A DNA stretch of 64,000 bases from a virus (taxonomy: Duplodnaviria; Caudoviricetes), in IMG/VR virus record IMGVR_UViG_3300005670_000019, one strand, 5' to 3'. The position numbers were made by a program, and so were the translations under genes. Shown here one piece after another: positions 3,665 through 30,217 of the stretch. Below the pieces are notes generated by a model. That model did no database searches and had not been told where the DNA came from. It was given only the letters and a program-made list of their open reading frames with translations. The stretch's first letter is position 1. Each line of letters starts with the position of its first letter.

Positions 3665-4048
3665 ATGTCATTCAAACATTCTCAAGAAAGTTTATTGGAA
3701 TATCTAAAAAAATATTCTAACTCTAGATTGCCTAACACTCATAGAGTAAAATTACATTTACTCCAAACCAAATTTTTAGAAAACAAATGTTCAATTTGCA
3801 ATATGCCACCTTTTTGGTTTGGTAAACCCATTAGTTTCCATCTTGATCACATTGATGGAAACCCAAAAAACAATGAAGTTTCAAACTTCAGAATTCTTTG
3901 TCCAAACTGTCATTCTCAAACAGAAAGTTATTGCGGTAAAAAGAACACTAAAACCCAACACATAAGACAAAAATATTTTTGTCTTGATTGTAAATCAGAA
4001 ATTACATCAAGGGCAAAACGTTGCAAATCCTGTGCTCGACGAGCCTAA
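3665..4048 (+). CDS. HNH endonuclease
   Basis: CSIC...HLDHIDGNPKNNEVSNFRILCPNCHSQT plus C-terminal CxxC..CxxC; divergent from tRNA-Ile. Confidence 0.9.
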   Translation: MSFKHSQESLLEYLKKYSNSRLPNTHRVKLHLLQTKFLENKCSICNMPPFWFGKPISFHLDHIDGNPKNNEVSNFRILCPNCHSQTESYCGKKNTKTQHIRQKYFCLDCKSEITSRAKRCKSCARRA

Positions 4049-4066
4049 CCATTTGCCTACCCTTCC
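4041..4066 (-). pseudogene. 5' fragment of a tRNA (isotype unknown)
   Basis: GGAAGGG-TA-GGC-AAATGGTTAG-GCT just downstream of a promoter; overlaps the HNH stop codon. Confidence 0.6.
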
Positions 4067-4075
4067 ATATTCTTA

Positions 4076-4104
4076 ATTATGCCTCAAATTCGGAGAGATT
4101 TCAA
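4076..4104 (-). promoter_or_regulatory. sigma70-like promoter
   Basis: TTGAAA-N17-CATAAT. Confidence 0.6.
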
Positions 4105-4119
4105 GGCATAATTCAAAAT

Positions 4120-4815
4120 TCAGTATCCATCAAGTCCCACTGTGTTTTCATAAGTATCGATGACAAGCGGTCTATGACCTGGCTCGTAACTTTCGTTACA
4201 GATAGCCGCATTGACCACAGTAGAGCCCCAGGGCATTTTGTAAACCCCGTAAGAGTAATGAATGTGTCCACACACAATCCATTTTGTCTTCGTCTCAGAA
4301 AGGCGTGTGGTGAGTTCTGGACAGCCATAATGAACAAGTCTACTTACGTACTTGTTCTTATAATCCGGACCAACATCACCATACATTGAGGGCGGACCAT
4401 GCGTAATCAAAACATCAGTTTCTTCGGGAAGTTGATCCCAAATGTCACGAGCCTCCGGTCCAGGCTCGTAACCCCATCCCCAACTTCCTGCAATTGGAGA
4501 ATAGCTTTCGCCATAGAAATTCAGACCATCAATGGTCACAAGTTCATTATGAATGAACTGAACATTTCCATCGTACTTTTCAAGATGGTACTTGTAATAC
4601 CTAGTGTTTCCAGAAAACTCTGCTTCATGATTGCCGCAAATTACGAGCTTATGTTCGTGAGGTTGAGCTGCAAACCATTTGGCAAATTGTTCAATTTGTT
4701 CAAGAGTTCCTGTTCGGGAAAAGTCGCCTGCATGAACGAGAACATCACCCATAGGAATTGGATGATAAAGCCTATCATGAAGACAATGAGTGTCACTGAT
4801 GCAGACGATTTTCAT
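4120..4815 (-). CDS. calcineurin-like metallophosphoesterase
   Basis: SDTH, HAGD, GNHE, HGPP and GHIH motifs. Confidence 0.92.
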   Translation of the reverse strand: MKIVCISDTHCLHDRLYHPIPMGDVLVHAGDFSRTGTLEQIEQFAKWFAAQPHEHKLVICGNHEAEFSGNTRYYKYHLEKYDGNVQFIHNELVTIDGLNFYGESYSPIAGSWGWGYEPGPEARDIWDQLPEETDVLITHGPPSMYGDVGPDYKNKYVSRLVHYGCPELTTRLSETKTKWIVCGHIHYSYGVYKMPWGSTVVNAAICNESYEPGHRPLVIDTYENTVGLDGY

Positions 4816-5113
4816 ACTTTATTCTATGATGATTTCGTCAGAATTTCAAACAACATTTCATTCTTCTTCTAGTTTTGTGAAGCGAATGTCCGTCTCGCAC
4901 TCAATAATCGCACCATTCTTACAAAGAGCTGCAACTCTGACAAAGCGTCCTGGAGAAAATGATCCCTTTCCAATGAAAGAAGAAACTTGATCATCCAAAT
5001 CAATAAGAAGAATGAATAGAGTACAATCTATGTACTGGTACTTTTCATTGAAGAAAACTAATGATTGAAACTTTCTTCTTGGAAAAAGAATTGTACCTGT
5101 TTCGAGACACATT

Positions 5114-5566
5114 TTAGAAAGTCTTTGGTTTGTTGGGTGATCGGACAAAAAACTTTTTCAATCTTTCAACGAAAGATTTCCACTTTTCTTGTCGCAACTT
5201 TGACTTCTCTTGTCGAAGTCTTTCTTTTTCTCTTTTTCTCTCAAGCTTCTCGTTGAGAGCCTTCGCTCTTCGGTCAGCTTCACAGTTTCCGCATTCATAA
5301 GCCCAATTAGCATTATGATCTAGAAATGTGTTGAAATACTTTTGCTGGCATTCGTGACAGAGAACTTTTCCACAAACACAACAAACAACGGGTTCTCCAT
5401 GTTCACAAATTGCGTTTCTTTCCCAACCTTTAGGCGGAAAGTCACGGGGTCGATGATATGCATGAAACGCCGCTGCTTTCCTTCGCAACCAATCAAAGTG
5501 ATGATTGTCACGATATTCTAGCTCAGCTTTCAGCCGAGCATTTTCTTTTCGAAGGTCTTCACTCAT
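5114..5566 (-). CDS. hypothetical Cys-rich protein
   Basis: CCVCGKVLCHEC...CGNC; coiled-coil C-terminus. Confidence 0.6.
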   Translation of the reverse strand: MSEDLRKENARLKAELEYRDNHHFDWLRRKAAAFHAYHRPRDFPPKGWERNAICEHGEPVVCCVCGKVLCHECQQKYFNTFLDHNANWAYECGNCEADRRAKALNEKLERKREKERLRQEKSKLRQEKWKSFVERLKKFFVRSPNKPKTF

Positions 5567-6396: not shown

Positions 6397-6425
6397 ACTA
6401 TAGCATATGGGTCGACCATTTTCAA
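6397..6425 (-). promoter_or_regulatory. sigma70-like promoter
   Basis: TTGAAA-N17-TATAGT with extended -10 TG. Confidence 0.7.
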
Positions 6426-7440: not shown

Positions 7441-7469
7441 ACTATAATGCGGTCGGAAGTTATTTTCAA
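7441..7469 (-). promoter_or_regulatory. sigma70-like promoter
   Basis: TTGAAA-N17-TATAGT directly upstream of tRNA-Cys. Confidence 0.7.
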
Positions 7470-9803: not shown

Positions 9804-10176
9804 CAGTTTCCTCTTCAAACTCTTCGTTAGGTTCTTCAAGAACTTCTTTGTGAAGGTCAAAGATCAACACAGAATAATCATCACTTATGAAAACTGCGAT
9901 TTTTAGACTGGACTCTGGTTTAGGTTTCAGATAGGAAATTATTCCTTCTTCGGAATAGACAGAATCAAACTGAAACTTTTGAGTTTGTTTCTTATTCTTC
10001 CAGTAGCCCTTATATTCAAGTAGTTCGTGCCTGTCCAAAGAGAAATAAACCTCTCCCTTTTCGGGATCAAGAAACCACCAACGATCGTTCATTACAACAT
10101 AAACTTGAGTCTGTGGTGTTGGAGGGTTTACCTCATCTTTTTGTTCCCAAATAGAATCGCCAATCGCTGTCTTCAT
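9793..10176 (-). CDS. hypothetical protein
   Basis: 127-aa ORF with acidic tail. Confidence 0.55.
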   Translation of the reverse strand: MKTAIGDSIWEQKDEVNPPTPQTQVYVVMNDRWWFLDPEKGEVYFSLDRHELLEYKGYWKNKKQTQKFQFDSVYSEEGIISYLKPKPESSLKIAVFISDDYSVLIFDLHKEVLEEPNEEFEEETDEQ

Positions 10177-10184
10177 AACTTACA

Positions 10185-10586
10185 TTACCACTTCTTGTGG
10201 CGATTTTCAACAAAAATTTGATAGGACTTATCGAATTTGGATTTTAGAAAATCTAAAGGACTTTGAATGAAAGAAAGAAGTTTGTACTTGACAGTTCTAT
10301 TATCCTTGTTCTTTTTTATTTCTAAAAAGTTCTCTCTTCTCAAGATTTCCCATTCATTCTCAAGAACCTTTACAGCAGCTTTACTTTGTGCTGAGGCATG
10401 TTGAGCTCGGAACCATTCAAGTTCCGCCAAGTTTCTTTCAAGTTGAGAAGCTGTTGACGATGAAGCCTTCATGGCAGCTACAAATCTCTTTTGAGCCTTT
10501 GTAACTTGCTCTTTATGCTTTCTTCTAAGCATCCTAGCACTCTTTAGTTGTTGAAGAGTGCTATCATATGGTGAAAAGTATTTCAC
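10185..10586 (-). CDS. hypothetical coiled-coil protein
   Basis: 133-aa ORF. Confidence 0.55.
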   Translation of the reverse strand: MKYFSPYDSTLQQLKSARMLRRKHKEQVTKAQKRFVAAMKASSSTASQLERNLAELEWFRAQHASAQSKAAVKVLENEWEILRRENFLEIKKNKDNRTVKYKLLSFIQSPLDFLKSKFDKSYQIFVENRHKKW

Positions 10587-11608
10587 TTCTTGTTAGAAAC
10601 GGCGGCTCCACCAAGCTTTGCAAGGTTCTCAAAAAGAGGACGAAGCTGCTGGAGACGTGGCTGAATAACGTCACGTGAACTTGCTTCGATTTGCATTTCG
10701 CAAGCCGCAGCGACACCATCGCCATAAGGAACATCAAAGTTCTCTGTCGCAGCGTGAAGCAAAGTTGCCATGACCATCTTTGCGATCTCATTCTTTACAG
10801 GATCTCCCTTATCTGTAAAGTCGTATCCAGTAAGCTCGCGAGCAAAAGTCAAAAGAGTTTCACCAATCTCATCCACGGCGGCAACCTTCGCACCATGTGT
10901 TGCGGCGCGCCTTGCCATTTGAACGGTTCCAGAAACAGTCTTTTCCTTGGTTGTTTTTGCGGTTGTCATTTTCTTTTCTTCTTTCGTTTTTGTAATGGTC
11001 TTTGTTTTGGTGTCTGATTCCGACTTTTCAGTCGGTTGATTTTTTGTTAAATCAACCCTTGATTTGTGAGGAACATAAAAAGCATTGGTTGCAACTCTAC
11101 AAATTTTGGTAATTCCAGTGTAGGCGCGGGAGGTTGAAATACAGTGCGCGTGATACTTGCTTTCAAGAAACTCTGCCTCTCTGTGAGAAATGAGGAAGTA
11201 TCCTTCTTGAATGCTTTCAAAATTTCTCATTCTCTGAGTTCCGTCAGATTTTGTAAATCCTTGAAATTTTAGACGATAGAGTGAAAAATTTTGATATAGA
11301 GTTTCTGTAAATCCTGAGATTTGATAGGCGGCACCATTCAGAATGATTTTAATGCGTTCATGATTCAAAACTTGTTTGAATGATGGGTTTTTATTTTTTC
11401 TAGAACCGATAAGAAGTCTGCAAAGTGTTCCGTCCAGTTCTTCTACAAAGAACGATTTAGGATCTGGTTCTGAATCTAACTTTAGCTTTCTGATCTCATT
11501 ACTGAGCAAAAAGTTTTCTAAGTAAAACTCATTTACAGGACGCGGTTCGGTGTAGTAGTTAGGGTCACTGTTAGTACGAATTGATAAAGCTTCCATTGTT
11601 TCTTTCAA
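10583..11608 (-). CDS. hypothetical protein (possible internal start at MTTAK)
   Basis: 341-aa ORF; T/K-rich linker followed by a GC-richer C-terminal domain. Confidence 0.6.
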   Translation of the reverse strand: MKETMEALSIRTNSDPNYYTEPRPVNEFYLENFLLSNEIRKLKLDSEPDPKSFFVEELDGTLCRLLIGSRKNKNPSFKQVLNHERIKIILNGAAYQISGFTETLYQNFSLYRLKFQGFTKSDGTQRMRNFESIQEGYFLISHREAEFLESKYHAHCISTSRAYTGITKICRVATNAFYVPHKSRVDLTKNQPTEKSESDTKTKTITKTKEEKKMTTAKTTKEKTVSGTVQMARRAATHGAKVAAVDEIGETLLTFARELTGYDFTDKGDPVKNEIAKMVMATLLHAATENFDVPYGDGVAAACEMQIEASSRDVIQPRLQQLRPLFENLAKLGGAAVSNKK

Positions 11609-14062: not shown

Positions 14063-14070
14063 AATCTATT

Positions 14071-14113
14071 TGGTGCTCAGGGCGGGATTCGAACCCGCAA
14101 GCCGTTTATAGGC
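14071..14113 (-). pseudogene. 3' half of an interrupted tRNA-Leu
   Basis: Variable arm GCC-TATAAAC-GGC, T arm GCGGGTTCGAATCCCGC, CCTGAGC-A-CCA; pairs with GCTCAGG at 14680-14674. Confidence 0.88.
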
Positions 14114-14119
14114 ATAAAT

Positions 14120-14206
14120 TGGTACCGAGAACAGGATTTGAACCTGCACCCACGTAAAGTGGACAACGCTCTCAACGTTGCGGGTCTGCCATTCCCCCAC
14201 CTCGGC
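14120..14206 (-). tRNA. tRNA-Leu(GAG)
   Basis: CAACG-TTGAGAG-CGTTG; long variable arm; A73; CCA. Confidence 0.92.
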
Positions 14207-14695: not shown

Positions 14696-14724
14696 ACTAT
14701 AGACGATTTCTCGTCAGATTTCAA
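14696..14724 (-). promoter_or_regulatory. sigma70-like promoter
   Basis: TTGAAA-N17-TATAGT. Confidence 0.7.
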
Positions 14725-16289: not shown

Positions 16290-16330
16290 ACCTTCACTAT
16301 ATCAGGTTTTGGGGGATTTTCAAGAAACGT

Positions 16331-17979: not shown

Positions 17980-18052
17980 CTACAAACAAAGGGAATCGAA
18001 CCCTCTTCTTCCGGATTGGAGTCCGGATGCACACCATTTGCATAGTTTGCAG
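17980..18052 (-). pseudogene. degenerate tRNA (Gly- or Trp-like), 6-nt anticodon loop
   Basis: CCGGA-CTCCAA-TCCGG; canonical T arm; no CCA. Confidence 0.6.
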
Positions 18053-20875: not shown

Positions 20876-20891
20876 TATTCAGTTTTCAAAC
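20876..20891 (-). promoter_or_regulatory. boxA-like antitermination motif
   Basis: GTTTGAAAACTGAATA. Confidence 0.55.
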
Positions 20892-23210: not shown

Positions 23211-23226
23211 GTATTTAGTTTTCAAC
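23211..23226 (-). promoter_or_regulatory. boxA-like antitermination motif
   Basis: GTTGAAAACTAAATAC. Confidence 0.55.
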
Positions 23227-23503
23227 GCCCGAAGGGCAGTATAACCTGCTCACGCCGGGGCGGCTATTGCAGGTTGAAATTTGGTGCCCCGTTTCGCCGG
23301 GGCGACGCGCTGTTTCTTGTTTGGGGTAAGTCGACCTTGCCCATTCAAGCGGCGGCTCCATGTAGCCGGAGATATGTGTGAGTTAGGCTTACGTTTCCGT
23401 CAGCCGCTCACTCGATATCCCTTCATTCTTTTACTCTAGCAGGTCCGAAGACCATTTTCAACCAATGTCGGTCGATTTTTTTGAGTGCTTTTTAGCACGA
23501 AAT

Positions 23504-25896: not shown

Positions 25897-26091
25897 TTAC
25901 CACCTAACAACTGCAATCTGTCTCTCTTCAAATTGAAGAGTTGAAGTTTCAATTCCACAGCTCCTTAGATAGGACTTTGCTTGTTCGACTTGCCCAGGTT
26001 CAATCAAAAGCTTGAGCCCATGTGCATTTCTTCCAATACCATGAAACCATGATTGGTTTTGACAGAAATTGACAATTGCTTGTTTGGTCAT
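25897..26091 (-). CDS. hypothetical protein
   Basis: 64-aa ORF between tRNAs. Confidence 0.5.
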   Translation of the reverse strand: MTKQAIVNFCQNQSWFHGIGRNAHGLKLLIEPGQVEQAKSYLRSCGIETSTLQFEERQIAVVRW

Positions 26092-26128
26092 TTATTTCTC
26101 TAACTAACGACTCTATATGAGTCAAAAA

Positions 26129-26202
26129 TGGCGACGCTAAACGGACTTGAACCGATATCCAACTCCTAGACAGGGAGGTGCATTACATTATGCTATAACG
26201 CC
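26129..26202 (-). tRNA. tRNA-Asp(GTC)
   Basis: CTCC-CTGTCTA-GGAG; G73; CCA. Confidence 0.9.
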
Positions 26203-26262
26203 AATCTCTTACCTTCACAGTATCACAGTGAAACGGAAGTTTCAAGCGATGCTTGAAGATTT

Positions 26263-26339
26263 TGGTGAACGAGGTGAGAGTTGAACCCACATCCCATAGC
26301 TTCTGAGGCTATGCGCTCTTCCTGTTGGCGTACTCGTCC
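26263..26339 (-). tRNA. tRNA with CAG (Leu) anticodon on a short-variable-loop body
   Basis: ATAGC-CTCAGAA-GCTAT; no variable arm; CCA. Confidence 0.75.
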
Positions 26340-26408
26340 ATCAACAATCTAACCACATTCAAAATTGCATCTAAAGATGGGTCATTTGACTTTGATCAGA
26401 TTTATAGT

Positions 26409-26484
26409 TGGCATTCCCGAACGGACTCGAACCGATACCTTCACCTTGAGAGGGTGACCACCTAACCATTAGTAAGACGGGAAC
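26409..26484 (-). tRNA. tRNA-Glu(CTC)
   Basis: TCACC-CTCTCAA-GGTGA; CCA; first tRNA after the attenuator. Confidence 0.92.
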
Positions 26485-26494
26485 AAAAAGAAAC

Positions 26495-26511
26495 GTATTC
26501 AGTTGTCAAAG
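26495..26511 (-). promoter_or_regulatory. boxA-like antitermination motif
   Basis: CTTTGACAACTGAATAC between the terminator and the first tRNA. Confidence 0.6.
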
Positions 26512-26514
26512 TAG

Positions 26515-26549
26515 AAACGAAAAACCCTCCGAGCTTTTGCTGGAGGGTT
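26515..26549 (-). terminator. intrinsic terminator of the attenuator
   Basis: AACCCTCC-AGC-AAAA-GCT-C-GGAGGG followed by TTTTTCGTTT. Confidence 0.85.
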
Positions 26550-26587
26550 GCTACACTTCTATACACACACTAATATAAGCAACCCTC
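26543..26587 (-). promoter_or_regulatory. antiterminator hairpin, mutually exclusive with the terminator
   Basis: GAGGGTTGCT pairs perfectly with AGCAACCCTC, which includes the terminator 5' arm. Confidence 0.8.
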
Positions 26588-26675
26588 AAATGTCATCAAT
26601 AAACGCAGGCAAGTATCCCTCGACGAGGCTTACTTCGCGTTTTGTTGACCAATCATTTTGATGTATGTTACTCAT
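26586..26675 (-). CDS. leader peptide MSNIHQNDWSTKREVSLVEGYLPAFIDDI
   Basis: 29 codons, 19 amino acids, 27 distinct codons; stop codon overlaps the antiterminator arm. Confidence 0.75.
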   Translation of the reverse strand: MSNIHQNDWSTKREVSLVEGYLPAFIDDI

Positions 26676-26693
26676 ACTAATTCTTGTACTTAC

Positions 26694-26701
26694 TAAATAG
26701 T
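26694..26701 (-). promoter_or_regulatory. putative phage late promoter motif ACTATTTA
   Basis: Same motif just upstream of minus-strand genes at 30633-30640 and 42850-42857, with a variant at 52163-52170. Confidence 0.5.
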
Positions 26702-26760
26702 AAGTTGTATAGTTTTTCCCACCAGCGGGAGTCGTTTTTTCTATCTACAACCACTATACC

Positions 26761-28098
26761 CTATTGGCTCCAGAATTTCAAGGGTTGTAGCTGTGGTTGT
26801 AGTTGGGTCATGTGAGCTTCCTCACTTGCAGTCACAGGTCCCAATTTTGAAACGAAATTCTTTATCCAGCGTTGATAGATTGATGACTTATCATCATTCT
26901 TCTTCAATTCTTGACGTCTTGCTTGAACAATTGAAACAAAATTCTCAATTGAATAACGCAGTATTGTTGGGTCTGATGAAATCATGCAAAGACCTGCTAA
27001 TGCTTGGTCGTCGTCTCCCGTAGCGATTGCATAATCAATCAAAAAATAAAGAAGAATGTGTTCAAGTCTAGAGTTTAATTGAGAACCATCATAGGAGTTT
27101 TTTGAATGTTCAAACTCTTTCTTAATTTTATCTGTTGTCATATTCTTGACAACAAATTCATAAATTTGATTTTTATCCTTTTCCGGCAAGGTCATGTGGC
27201 GGTCGACATGCTTGGAAAACCTTTTCGCAAATGCTTGCGGATGATTTCCGGAAATTCTCGTAAAGACCATTTCCCTTTTTTCAATGACTTCGGAGAAATC
27301 CTTATGATAAAGGATTTTATCCTTGGTGAAACCAATCATTGAAGATTTCAAATCAAACATTGATAAAATTTCTTCAAACGAAGCTTCGTTATGTACCCCG
27401 GTGATAAACTGCAAAATAACAGGCTTTTGTTTGAATGTGTTGGTCATTATCTGAATTGTAATTGCGGTGCTTGTAACCCTTACAACTTCAAGACCAAACC
27501 TTATTGTTCCGTCATGACTCCCCAAGCTCGGTGGAATGTCCTTTCCACTTACACTAACAGGAAAGATTGGAGCATTCCAATACTTGATTTCCAATTGATT
27601 TAATTGATGAATCAAACTGTACAAGGTTTTCATTCCCTTGATAATCTCTTCATCTTCATAAAAGAAGAGATCATAATCAGTATCTTCTATAGAAGTTTTG
27701 CTTGAAATCCTGCTCAAACTTCCACCTGCCCACATGGCATTTGAGTTTTGCAAAACTTGCATCAAAATAGGGAAAATATTCAAACTGTTTGGAATACGTT
27801 CTTTTCCAAAGAGAAGAATTTTCAATTGTTCATGACTCATCAACCTAAAGTTGAATGGATTTGGATTTTCAAATCCATACATTGGGTGAACAAAAAATTT
27901 CGTTGAAATGAAATGTCGTAGTCGCGAAATGGCAACATCCTCTGTTTCAGAGGAATGATCCAGAGATAAAATCTCGTTTTCATTTACAGGATTGATTTCA
28001 ATGAAATCCTTTTCCAGGGAAAGTTGGTTTTTAGCCTCTTCTAGAAGTTTGAAGTTTTTCTTTGCTTCTAGAAGATGTAGATTGTCAACGTTACTCAT
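26761..28098 (-). CDS. putative nucleotidyltransferase (Pol beta superfamily)
   Basis: AGGSLS...DYDLFF...FDL motifs resembling a CCA-adding/poly(A) polymerase head domain. Confidence 0.6.
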   Translation of the reverse strand: MSNVDNLHLLEAKKNFKLLEEAKNQLSLEKDFIEINPVNENEILSLDHSSETEDVAISRLRHFISTKFFVHPMYGFENPNPFNFRLMSHEQLKILLFGKERIPNSLNIFPILMQVLQNSNAMWAGGSLSRISSKTSIEDTDYDLFFYEDEEIIKGMKTLYSLIHQLNQLEIKYWNAPIFPVSVSGKDIPPSLGSHDGTIRFGLEVVRVTSTAITIQIMTNTFKQKPVILQFITGVHNEASFEEILSMFDLKSSMIGFTKDKILYHKDFSEVIEKREMVFTRISGNHPQAFAKRFSKHVDRHMTLPEKDKNQIYEFVVKNMTTDKIKKEFEHSKNSYDGSQLNSRLEHILLYFLIDYAIATGDDDQALAGLCMISSDPTILRYSIENFVSIVQARRQELKKNDDKSSIYQRWIKNFVSKLGPVTASEEAHMTQLQPQLQPLKFWSQ

Positions 28099-28502
28099 AG
28101 ACTAAGAACTCCAAACTCATTATCACTAATGCTGTAGTATGCTCGCTTAATTCCGTAGCTCTTCAAAACCTCTTCGCAAATTGGACAAGGGCGAGCCAAT
28201 CCAAGCTCACCAAGAGGAGAGTTAGAAGAACGAAGTCGAACAACAAAAATCTTTGAACCTCGAAGGTCAGTCTTAGAACGAACCTTCAAAATAGCATCTT
28301 GTTCTGCGTGAGTAGTTTCACAATACTCATGCTTTGCGATCTTTTGATAATGCCTTACAAAGGCATTCGTTCCAGACTTGTTATATCCGACAGAAAGCAC
28401 ACGTCCACCCTTGACAATAATAGCACAAACATGGTGCTCCAAATATTCATCAAAGGTATGTTGGTCACCAAAACTCTTGGCGAGAAGTAGGTACTTGTGC
28501 AT
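28095..28502 (-). CDS. zinc-dependent cytidine/dCMP deaminase family protein
   Basis: HAE...PCPIC motifs. Confidence 0.88.
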   Translation of the reverse strand: MHKYLLLAKSFGDQHTFDEYLEHHVCAIIVKGGRVLSVGYNKSGTNAFVRHYQKIAKHEYCETTHAEQDAILKVRSKTDLRGSKIFVVRLRSSNSPLGELGLARPCPICEEVLKSYGIKRAYYSISDNEFGVLSL

Positions 28503-28555: not shown

Positions 28556-30217
28556 TCAGTCATCTAACCATCCCCATGGATTTTGCCAATGAGGTGTTCG
28601 GGTAGAATTCATAACTCTACTATCTGTTGAAGACCCACCAAAATGCCCAGCATTTGAAGGATTTGTTGAATGCGCAGCTCCCCATCCTGATGTTGACTTT
28701 TGGGTTTCAAAAGTTTTGACTGTTGTTTGGTTTACGGACATGGCAGCAATCATAGCTCTAGCAAGTTCTGCGCTGCTATCAAAGTTTTGGTCACCTTGTG
28801 GGTCGAAAAACAAGAGAGTAATTGCAAGGGACATGACAAGGTCGTCGTTGTAACCTTTCATAGCTTGCGCCTTATTGTTATGCCAAATGAATGTTTTCAA
28901 CTCTTCAACAAAGCGTCCGGAATATATCTTTAGCGTTTTCGTTCTGAGTGCTTGTTCAAGTTTTACAAGTCCTTCATTTCTGGATTTTACACTCATCATC
29001 AAACCTGGGGTGTATGGTTCGACATCAATATCACTAAGCCATTTGGTTCCCATCAAAACTTCTTTTGAGAACTTCTCATAAAATACTTTTGGGTACTTCA
29101 ATCTTTTCAGTTCAAGATTTGTTGCGATTCCACCACCTTGTTGTTCAGCAATGATGACAGCGTTATTGTATTTTCCACCAATGTCAGCAAGAAGTCTTCC
29201 GAAATCATCAGCAGGAAGTTGTCCCTTGAATTCACAAACAACTTCACTTTCATCCATATCAATAACATAAAAAGAAGAGAAGTCCTCACCATCACCACGA
29301 GCGACGTCTGCTCCAATGATGTATTTGTGATTTGGAACTTGATATCTCCAGATCCACACGTTTTGATTTGGACCATATGTTGCGAGTGGTGGTCGAATAC
29401 TTTTCTCTAACCAAGAAACTTGTTCTTCATCAACAAATCCATTTCCAGAACCCTCAAACTTACAAAGAAGCTCTGAGTTGATACCTCTTTGAGAACCGAT
29501 AGCTCTTGATTGTTCTTCGAACCATTTCTCATTATGTTCTGGATGAACAAACCAAGGAAGTTCAATGGGATAGAAATCATTCGTCTTGTCTTGAGCTCCG
29601 ACCCAAATCTTATGGAAACGCGTTCCTACACCAGAAGGTGATGAAATCAAAATAACATCTCCTCCGGTAGATAACGTTGGTTGAAGACCGATCCAAAGGT
29701 CTTCAAAATCTGCAATCCAGCCCGCCTCATCAATAATCAAAAGAGATACGGCTTCGCCTCGACCTGCATCAGGAGAAGTTGGAATAGCGTGAATCTTTGA
29801 ACCATTGTCGAACTCAAGTGATTTGTTTGTTTCACTCGTGATGTTTGGAACAACCAACCATGATGGAAGAGACTTGAACATTCCCTTTACTTTTCTAACG
29901 AAAAGCTGTGCTGTTGAAAGTTTGGTAGCGATAACAAGAACGTTCTTTTCTCGTTGAAAAATAGCCATCCAAAGTGAGTAAGCAGCAGCAAGAGTAGAAA
30001 GTCCAAGCTGACGACTTTTGTTTGTGATAACGTGATTGTTGTTCAAGAAAGCTTGCAAACAATCGATCTGATATGGAAACAATTCAAAAGGAATTGAGCC
30101 TTTTGTTGGGTGAGAAATTTTTACGTATTTCTCAATGAAATATACAGGATCAGAACCACATCGAATGATTTCATTCAAATGTTCTTTTCTTGTTTGATTG
30201 ATTTTCGGTCGCTTCAC
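28556..30217 (-). CDS. terminase large subunit
   Basis: KSRQLGLS Walker A, IIDEA Walker B, GADVARG RNase H-like motif, NDDLVMS. Confidence 0.95.
   Translation of the reverse strand: MKRPKINQTRKEHLNEIIRCGSDPVYFIEKYVKISHPTKGSIPFELFPYQIDCLQAFLNNNHVITNKSRQLGLSTLAAAYSLWMAIFQREKNVLVIATKLSTAQLFVRKVKGMFKSLPSWLVVPNITSETNKSLEFDNGSKIHAIPTSPDAGRGEAVSLLIIDEAGWIADFEDLWIGLQPTLSTGGDVILISSPSGVGTRFHKIWVGAQDKTNDFYPIELPWFVHPEHNEKWFEEQSRAIGSQRGINSELLCKFEGSGNGFVDEEQVSWLEKSIRPPLATYGPNQNVWIWRYQVPNHKYIIGADVARGDGEDFSSFYVIDMDESEVVCEFKGQLPADDFGRLLADIGGKYNNAVIIAEQQGGGIATNLELKRLKYPKVFYEKFSKEVLMGTKWLSDIDVEPYTPGLMMSVKSRNEGLVKLEQALRTKTLKIYSGRFVEELKTFIWHNNKAQAMKGYNDDLVMSLAITLLFFDPQGDQNFDSSAELARAMIAAMSVNQTTVKTFETQKSTSGWGAAHSTNPSNAGHFGGSSTDSRVMNSTRTPHWQNPWGWLDD

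Follow-up and report, generated by a model that had tools for sequence, protein, structure and literature searches.

The leader between the Gad2-like gene and the tRNA array

The stretch of DNA analysed here (the window; 64,000 nt, IMG/VR record IMGVR_UViG_3300005670_000019) comes from an uncultured giant phage of the Caudoviricetes (Duplodnaviria), the relatives of which are represented by contigs of up to 297-301 kb. On its minus strand, 33 transfer RNA (tRNA) genes are spread over positions 1617-26484, a T4-type large terminase (TerL) of 553 residues is encoded at 28556-30217 and a Gad2-like gene lies between the two. The gap between the Gad2-like gene and the first tRNA gene, tRNA-Glu(CUC), is occupied by a leader cassette that contains a short open reading frame (ORF), several RNA segments capable of mutually exclusive pairing and an intrinsic terminator (Table 1). 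We describe this leader and its counterparts in related phages, and argue that it is probably a ribosome-mediated (i.e., leader-peptide) transcription attenuator that gates the first block of tRNA genes and is followed by a putative rrn-like boxA. This block consists of tRNA-Glu(CUC) and the tRNA genes for Leu(CAG), Asp, Trp, Val, Arg(CCU), Phe, Pro, Ile(GAU) and Pro, after which the next promoter is found at 23461.

The leader ORF contains 27 distinct codons among 29, its first 26 codons being all different, and encodes 19 amino acids, Cys being absent. Among 29-codon windows from real genes of the window, the probability of at least 27 distinct codons was 7e-4 and that of at least 19 amino acids was 8e-4; under a null model that preserved hairpin pairs and composition, the latter probability was 0.006. 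Both values were reached at only 2 loci among 41,411 stop-free six-frame windows, and among the 124 ATG ORFs of 25-33 codons only the leader ORF reached both. The other locus (14065-14154, plus strand) overlaps, on the opposite strand, tRNA-Leu(GAG) and an adjacent tRNA-like repeat, and is thus most likely a by-product of tRNA sequence, not a gene. The leader uses codons that are slightly less common than the average (4.6th percentile). Given that the diversity of a single window might simply be an extreme value, the test was taken to the relatives described below.

Three helices can form in the leader. In minimum free energy (MFE) folds, a 15-bp protector pairs region 1 with part of region 2 and thereby encloses the ORF in a long hairpin. 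Region 2 can also pair with region 3 to form an antiterminator of 10 perfect bp (GAGGGTTGCT/AGCAACCCTC, -18.1 kcal/mol), the 5' arm of which starts with the GA of the TGA stop codon. When the upstream 46 nt were shuffled, the mean energy was -6.6 kcal/mol (standard deviation 2.2) and 0/2000 shuffles were as good. The third helix is that of the terminator, in which AACCCTCCAGC (26549-26539) pairs with GCTCGGAGGGTT (26534-26523) and the U-tract TTTTTCGTTTC lies 3' of the hairpin; the terminator region ends 30 nt ahead of tRNA-Glu. Compared with shuffles, the whole leader of the window had a fold z of -5.4, and the values for the leaders of the other two lineages were -5.1 and -2.7. An earlier reading made without database searches (the sequence-only reading) had pointed out the 26675-26586 ORF, its run of 26 different codons and its lack of Cys, as well as the protector, the 10-bp antiterminator over TGA and the terminator with its U-tract. 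All of them are present as it claimed, and the codon diversity that it proposed to compare with random 29-codon windows is exceptional by that comparison.

Table 1. Features of the leader and its surroundings in the window. MFE, minimum free energy.
Feature	Position	Strand	Basis or remark
Gad2-like gene, 445 aa	26761-28098	-	Pfam match PF26128
Promoter TTGAAA-17 nt-TATAGT	26753-26781	-	overlaps last codons of Gad2-like gene; predicted start ~26746
5' leader hairpin P0	26731-26716	-	MFE folds
5' leader hairpin P1, ACTTACTA-TT-TAGTAAGT	26705-26688	-	MFE folds; ends 12 nt ahead of ATG
Region 1, protector 5' arm AUUAGUAUGAGUAAC	26681-26667	-	start codon and codons 2-3
Leader ORF MSNIHQNDWSTKREVSLVEGYLPAFIDDI, 29 codons + TGA	26675 (ATG) to 26588-26586 (TGA)	-	~70 nt downstream of predicted start
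Region 2	26569-26587	-	antiterminator 5' arm GAGGGTTGCT (26587-26578) and protector 3' arm
Protector 3' arm GUUGCUUAUAUUAGU (also given as GTTGCTTATATTAGT)	26583-26569	-	part of region 2
Region 3, antiterminator 3' arm AGCAACCCTC	26552-26543	-	7 nt in common with terminator 5' arm
Intrinsic terminator AACCCTCCAGC-AAAA-GCT(C)GGAGGGTT then TTTTTCGTTTC	26514-26549	-	hairpin -17.4 kcal/mol and U-tract
boxA-like motif TTGACAACTGAATA, between terminator and tRNA	26496-26509	-	motif match
tRNA-Glu(CUC), first gene behind switch	26409-26484	-	
Promoter family copies	6397-6425, 7441-7469, 14696-14724, 16296-16323, 23433-23461, 26753-26781	-	pattern match

Conservation of the cassette in related phages

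Leaders of the same design were identified in three lineages, with A consisting of the window, L036 and L034, B of L050-L054 and L060, and C of L056 and L061. Lineages B and C were found by a TerL search, and L060 and L061 by a profile search with the gene upstream of the leader; the identity of TerL to that of the window is 80% for lineage B and 68% for lineage C. In contigs near-identical to the window, the leader is 97-100% identical. The gene order in lineages B and C is TerL, dCMP deaminase, Gad2-like gene, leader and tRNA-Glu(CUC), the last being the first tRNA in L050, L060, L056 and L061. Common to all three lineages is a cassette of a promoter, an ORF of 29-31 codons that begins with ATG AGT, a stop codon in the antiterminator 5' arm and an overlapping terminator, and this cassette was kept while the adjacent Gad2-like gene dropped to 19-23% protein identity.

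The switch itself was retained in two different ways. Lineage B retains the switch sequence of the window, with region 2 identical in L050 and L060 and a different terminator loop in L050. In lineage C the switch is rewritten, and both of its pairings are intact. Region 2 of L056 is AGGGGCTA, which contains the TAA stop, and region 3 is TAGCCCCT; together they form an antiterminator of -15.6 kcal/mol (0/2000 shuffles as good) with approximately four compensatory pair changes. The L056 terminator is CCCCTGAC-CCGAAAA-GTCAGGGG-TTTTGTTTT, in which CCCCTGAC pairs with GTCAGGGG. Thus, the antiterminator duplexes of the three lineages have energies of -18.1, -18.1 and -15.6 kcal/mol (each P <= 0.001 compared with shuffles), extend over 10 bp (A and B) or 8 bp (C) and have 5-7 nt in common with the terminator 5' arm. 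The stop codon falls within the antiterminator 5' arm in every lineage, with TGA over its first two bases in A and B and TAA within the arm in C. It should be noted that a MAFFT alignment misplaces the lineage C arms, and the helices were therefore compared lineage by lineage. The sequence-only reading had proposed a search among relatives for diverse ORFs with covarying stems upstream of tRNA arrays; the cassettes of lineages B and C, with the compensatory changes of lineage C, are of this kind.

The ORF bodies are only ~55% identical in DNA across the lineages. The ATG frame is nevertheless open in 7/7 variants, both other frames contain 1-4 stops, and the ORF lengths (87, 93 and 87 nt) differ in multiples of three. 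The peptides share little except MS.I..H..W[ST]. Their amino-acid types number 19 in 29 residues in the window, L036, L034 and L056, 18 in 31 in L050 and L060, and 18 in 29 in L061. Lineages B and C were taken as a replication set and had not been picked for diversity. Their joint diversity p was 4.5e-5 under a partial-inheritance null in which about one third of the residues were inherited, 1.2e-3 when His and Trp were also counted as inherited, 1.5e-3 with uniform amino-acid frequencies and 2.7e-4 under the structure-preserving null. Taken together, these comparisons are good, not overwhelming, evidence for the frame being read and for a broad set of amino acids being favoured.

The promoter position upstream of the leader is also kept, with TTGAAA-N17-TAGAGT in L056, TTGACA-N17-TAGGGT in L050 and TTGAGA-N17-TATGGT in L059. 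The last of these belongs to one of two additional lineages of the upstream gene (L058 and L059), the contigs of which stop short of the ORF. Immediately 5' of the ATG, L050 has a hairpin (GTACTAC-TTAC-GTAGTAC), and so does L056, with a different sequence. In MFE folds, the predicted first bases of the window's transcript, 26746-26735 (AGAAAAAACG), pair with 26497-26485 (CGTTTCTTTTT) just 5' of tRNA-Glu, and a similar pairing of the 5' and 3' ends can be drawn in L050. This modelled pairing may serve to close the leader or may mark a site of processing.

Downstream of the terminator, a motif with the sequence TTGA[AC]AACTGAATA[CT]GTTT is conserved in L050 and L056. The window's copy (26509-26496) resembles the published Bacillus subtilis boxA consensus AUGAUCUUUGAAA (PMC13753749), the likeness being one of sequence only. 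The pattern TTGA[AC]AACT[GA]AATA occurs exactly three times in the window, always on the tRNA strand (26509, 23225 and 20889). In species-representative bacterial genomes, the extended motif was found in ribosomal RNA (rRNA) operons at 3/8 sampled loci among the matches listed, i.e., in the 16S-23S spacer of Peptostreptococcus and of a Vicinamibacterales genome and ~190 nt upstream of 16S in Mesorhizobium. These matches fit the proposal that the motif is a putative rrn-like antitermination site, loaded after the polymerase passes the attenuator, and its position just after the terminator suggests that the transcripts that pass are meant to continue. The two further copies in the window (TTGAAAACT[AG]AATA, 23212-23225 and 20876-20889, minus strand) lie inside the array. 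The latter is 2 nt ahead of tRNA-Asn (20874), and the former is preceded by a GC-rich structured stretch of ~230 nt that lies downstream of the 23461 promoter and includes a GCCCCG-GCGAAA-CGGGGC-ACCA mini-helix.

Additional searches returned few further relatives. In a word-indexed protein database, all relatives of the upstream gene were near-identical to it, and a profile search of this database with three Gad2-like proteins added nothing. Among cultured phages, the sole blastn match to 26400-28100 was a tRNA of Cronobacter phages, and no match to the upstream gene was obtained by tblastn. In IMG/VR, there was no relative of the upstream gene, and the TerL relatives, at <=51% identity, had no tRNAs within 8 kb. 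A pattern that combined the post-terminator motif with the tRNA start gave 0 matches in viral contigs. A pattern for the 5' half of tRNA-Glu matched a single unrelated mid-array tRNA in metagenome contigs (L057) and nothing in genome contigs. No second cassette of a leader ORF and a terminator was found in the window.

As for the neighbouring genes, the family of the Gad2-like gene (PF26128) is anti-Gabija. The 19-23% identity between lineages of the Gad2-like proteins (compared in the window, L050 at 10125-11504, L056 at 3820-5163 and L060 at 4001-5392) stands against 68-80% for TerL of the same lineages, and the Gad2-like proteins of L050 and L060 came up as separate matches in a 50%-identity representative library, despite the near-identical leaders of these two contigs. 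By these sequence comparisons, the Gad2-like gene looks like a fast-evolving or swapped counter-defence gene that adjoins a conserved regulatory cassette. In the near-identical relatives L042, L043, L044 and L046 (1-2543), the TerL gene encodes ~1000 residues with matches to an intein (PF14890) and LAGLIDADG (PF14528); judged from these matches, its greater length compared with the 553 residues in the window is a predicted polymorphic intein insertion. Within the array, ARAGORN called a tRNA with the two-base anticodon "cc" at 17980-18051 (minus strand), beside tRNA-Gln(UUG), as one among several irregular tRNA-like bodies of the array.

Ribosome position, read-through and competing explanations

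The elements described above suggest the following sequence of events. Transcription from the host-type promoter (26781-26753) would start an RNA of ~230 nt with two small hairpins, the 29-codon ORF and four pairing regions, of which region 1 includes the start codon, region 2 the stop codon, and regions 3 and 4 make up the terminator. In untranslated RNA, 1:2 and 3:4 would fold and transcription would terminate 35 nt ahead of tRNA-Glu. A ribosome that has reached the stop codon would cover region 2, so that 3:4 forms and transcription stops as well. A delayed ribosome that still prevents 1:2 would allow region 2 to pair with region 3, and, with the terminator lost, RNA polymerase would continue over the boxA-like element into the first tRNA block.

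Equilibrium ensemble folding, in which 30 nt were masked around each A-site codon, provides a model for these states. The ribosome-free ensemble consists of the protector and the terminator; the probability of the terminator is 0.93 in lineages A and B, and that of region 2 being paired with the start region is 0.89 in the window. With the mask at the last codons or the stop codon, the terminator forms with a probability of 0.92-0.99 in all lineages, which fits the conserved placement of the stop codon inside region 2. For masks further upstream, the antiterminator forms in L056 for every codon from 2 to 23, and in L050 partially (0.20-0.35) for codons 2-8 and again partially at codons 25-27. 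In the window, it forms with a probability of 0.80-0.99 for codons 2-7 only, and the 15-bp helix between the start and stop regions is stable enough to re-form around a ribosome in the middle of the ORF; any-codon sensing in the window would thus need steric exclusion, queued ribosomes or a kinetic race. In these models the trp-like logic holds, and any-codon sensing follows from equilibrium folding in lineage C only. The sequence-only reading had proposed that a stall at almost any codon allows read-through, with folding under successively masked codons as a check; by this check, the proposal is borne out in L056, partly so in L050 and, beyond codon 7, not in the window.

The same ensembles bear on the polarity of the switch. 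Translation could in principle melt the protector, after which, once the ribosome is released, 2:3 would pair and the tRNAs would be made only while translation works. The untranslated state does terminate in the folding model, and 2:3 is local, with a loop of 25 nt, and by inference would fold faster than 1:2 after release. However, each lineage has its stop codon within the antiterminator arm, the geometry that would block 2:3 while a ribosome is at the stop, and a positive feedback on the tRNA supply would be less sensible biologically and would leave the amino-acid diversity unexplained. We therefore regard the opposite polarity as very improbable.

The extent of control is limited by the promoters of the array. 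Against an expectation of 0.13, the pattern TTGAAA-N16-18-TA[GT]AGT has 6 matches in the window; every one of them lies on the minus strand within the tRNA region, and the copy at 26753-26781 is directed into the leader. The T4-type late promoter TATAAATA showed no enrichment. Given that the other five copies lie inside the array (23461, 16323, 14724, 7469 and 6425) and bypass the switch, the switch can govern only the first block, from Glu to the second Pro. The suggestion of the sequence-only reading that the whole array is under its control is thus not supported, and its own caveat that promoters inside the array could bypass the attenuator is confirmed. The promoter at 7441-7469 immediately precedes tRNA-Cys, ending ~9 nt ahead of it, and tRNA-Cys may thus be made as a near-leaderless primary transcript. 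We noticed that Cys is the sole amino acid absent from every leader peptide and that tRNA-Cys has its own adjacent promoter.

With a default fold that is a strong terminator and five promoters of the same family behind it, the leader might be a boundary element, in which the terminator ends a small RNA (sRNA) of ~230 nt, a small-protein mRNA or the upstream operon, the tRNAs arise from leaky read-through and internal promoters, and the antiterminator is non-regulatory. Freed attenuator RNAs can indeed serve as sRNAs in other systems (PMC6614838). A boundary element would not account for the perfect antiterminator of 8-10 bp in every lineage, its compensatory rewriting in lineage C and its scores against shuffles, nor for the conserved boxA-like element after the terminator; furthermore, no promoter-like site was found between the terminator and tRNA-Glu, and the peptide is too poorly conserved for a functional micro-protein. 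Given these observations, such an element is improbable.

Several observations weigh against the attenuator reading. In addition to the confined response of the window's fold, a Shine-Dalgarno (SD) sequence is absent before the leader ATG in all three lineages; in the window, the anti-SD duplex has an energy of -0.9 kcal/mol compared with -6 to -8 kcal/mol for about half of the phage's long genes, which confirms the lack of a clear SD sequence noted in the sequence-only reading. Initiation would have to precede the transcription of region 2, given that the protector helix sequesters the start codon. Codons read by phage tRNAs are not enriched, with 13/29 leader codons having a Watson-Crick match compared with 50% in phage genes. 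Likewise, residues that match the amino acids of the first block are not enriched in the leaders (16/28, 12/30 and 21/28 compared with expected fractions of 0.50, 0.45 and 0.74; P = 0.27, 0.77 and 0.53). Within lineages, the micro-variation comprises 5 nonsynonymous and 2 synonymous changes, which shows no visible purifying selection on the peptide and includes too few sites to reveal coding constraint. An unconstrained peptide is as expected for a leader peptide without a function of its own, and the sample is too small to prove coding. The comparison covers only three independent lineages.

The diversity of the codons is also less strict in the relatives than in the window. The number of distinct codons falls to 26 in L036 and 25 in L034, and L061 lacks His and has 18 amino acids, so the all-different codon set proposed in the sequence-only reading does not extend to them. 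Nor does its tie between the ATA codon and tRNA-Ile(TAT): codon 4 is GTA in both L036 and the more divergent L034, and the window has thus probably acquired ATA recently. Further differences in L034 are AGC to AAC and two synonymous changes. What stands of the earlier attenuator proposal is its core of a putatively translated leader of unusually broad amino-acid content and a switch at the head of the tRNA region, which is supported by the conservation in three lineages and the compensatory change; several of its details are not supported.

Many of these observations would also be expected if the switch sensed a signal other than translation, such as a phage or host RNA-binding antiterminator protein or a small ligand or RNA acting on the 5' hairpins or the ORF hairpin, with the ORF being incidental. 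The lack of an SD sequence in every lineage, the sequestered start codon, the conserved hairpin 5' of the ATG, the strong structure of the leaders, the lack of switching under mid-ORF masks in lineages A and B and the mostly nonsynonymous micro-variation all agree with such a sensor. Against it, the frame, the position of the ATG, the stop codon in the antiterminator arm and lengths in multiples of three have persisted through ~45% DNA divergence, with stops in the other frames, and the amino-acid diversity replicates (p ~1e-3 to 1e-5, even under the structure-preserving null), for which an untranslated RNA would give no reason. The leader also has no match to any Rfam family, T-box included, at E <= 10. 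A sensor of this kind is, in our judgment, unlikely, and ribosome-mediated attenuation of the first tRNA block remains the reading that we consider probable.

If the ORF is translated, what it would report follows from its composition. Nearly every amino acid occurs once or twice in the ORF, and its transit time would thus report the general decoding capacity and not the supply of one amino acid. We tentatively propose that the leader acts as a "tRNA sufficiency meter", in which the time that the ribosome spends over ~27 codons and 19 amino acids decides on read-through into the tRNA block and on the loading of an rrn-like antitermination complex. Phage tRNAs would then be switched on whenever any host tRNA is limiting, e.g., by tRNA decay or anticodon nucleases, and the leader would be a pan-amino-acid attenuator for non-coding genes. 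This extension goes well beyond the attenuator itself, and we hold it as possible, with distinctly less confidence. The proposal bears on the question of why the genomes of large phages include dozens of tRNA genes and of how the expression of these genes is timed. If it is true, phages would measure decoding capacity and supply tRNAs in response, and tRNA carriage would have a direct link with the depletion of host tRNAs and with defences that target tRNAs. Attenuation would moreover be extended to non-coding targets, and to a leader of maximal amino-acid diversity instead of single-residue runs. The element is small (~260 nt) and portable, and could serve as a generic translation-stress sensor.

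Comparison with known attenuators and antitermination systems

The multivalent attenuators of enterobacterial amino-acid operons, such as those of ilvGMEDA (ilvL), thrL and leuL, with trpL as the prototype, are the closest structural counterparts of the phage leader. Like them, the phage leader has a promoter-proximal short ORF, the length of which (29-31 codons) is within the range seen for ilvL and leuL. Its RNA likewise has four regions, for which the 1:2, 2:3 and 3:4 pairings are mutually exclusive, and an intrinsic terminator, and the stop codon is positioned such that region 2 would be masked by a ribosome terminating there; in both, untranslated RNA is terminated, as far as the folding of the phage leader predicts. 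Unlike them, the phage leader has no runs of regulatory codons over region 1, with 18-19 amino-acid types per 29-31 residues and nearly every amino acid occurring once or twice, its region 1 is the start-codon region instead of the regulatory codons, and it has no SD sequence. In addition, it is encoded by a phage and its targets are tRNAs, not biosynthetic enzymes. A theory of multivalent leader-peptide attenuators has been published (PMC1183508). Our literature searches turned up no report of phage tRNA genes being controlled by a leader peptide.

T-box riboswitches also use a terminator/antiterminator switch to report tRNA status, whereas sensing in the phage leader would go via a translated ORF. 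As a candidate for this locus, a T-box was rejected: an Rfam scan of 26000-27200 at E <= 10 gave only tRNAs and chance-level matches, and neither a specifier loop nor a T-box sequence was found. In rrn-type processive antitermination, boxA acts with NusB and S10 (PMC13753749, PMC10250234). The phage locus resembles these operons in having a boxA-like [CT]TTGA[AC]AACTGAATA after the switch and twice more in the array, and in that some of the sampled bacteria have the extended motif in the leader of 16S or the spacer between 16S and 23S. It differs from them in that the motif, recognised here by its resemblance, is placed downstream of a conditional terminator and ahead of tRNAs.

Leader ORFs that respond to general translation stress have been described for B. 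subtilis bmrB-bmrCD (PMC4191407) and vmlR (PMC9226507) and for the upstream ORF of mycobacterial whiB7 (PMC10274678). In these systems, the slowing of ribosomes in a short upstream ORF swaps a terminator for an antiterminator, and the general state of translation is the signal, as is proposed for the phage leader. They respond mainly to ribosome-targeting drugs or particular residues, and their targets are protein-coding resistance genes; none has been reported with a near-complete amino-acid set or with tRNA genes as targets. By this analogy, the phage leader would be functionally nearer to the bmrB, vmlR and whiB7 leaders than to the classical attenuators of amino-acid operons.

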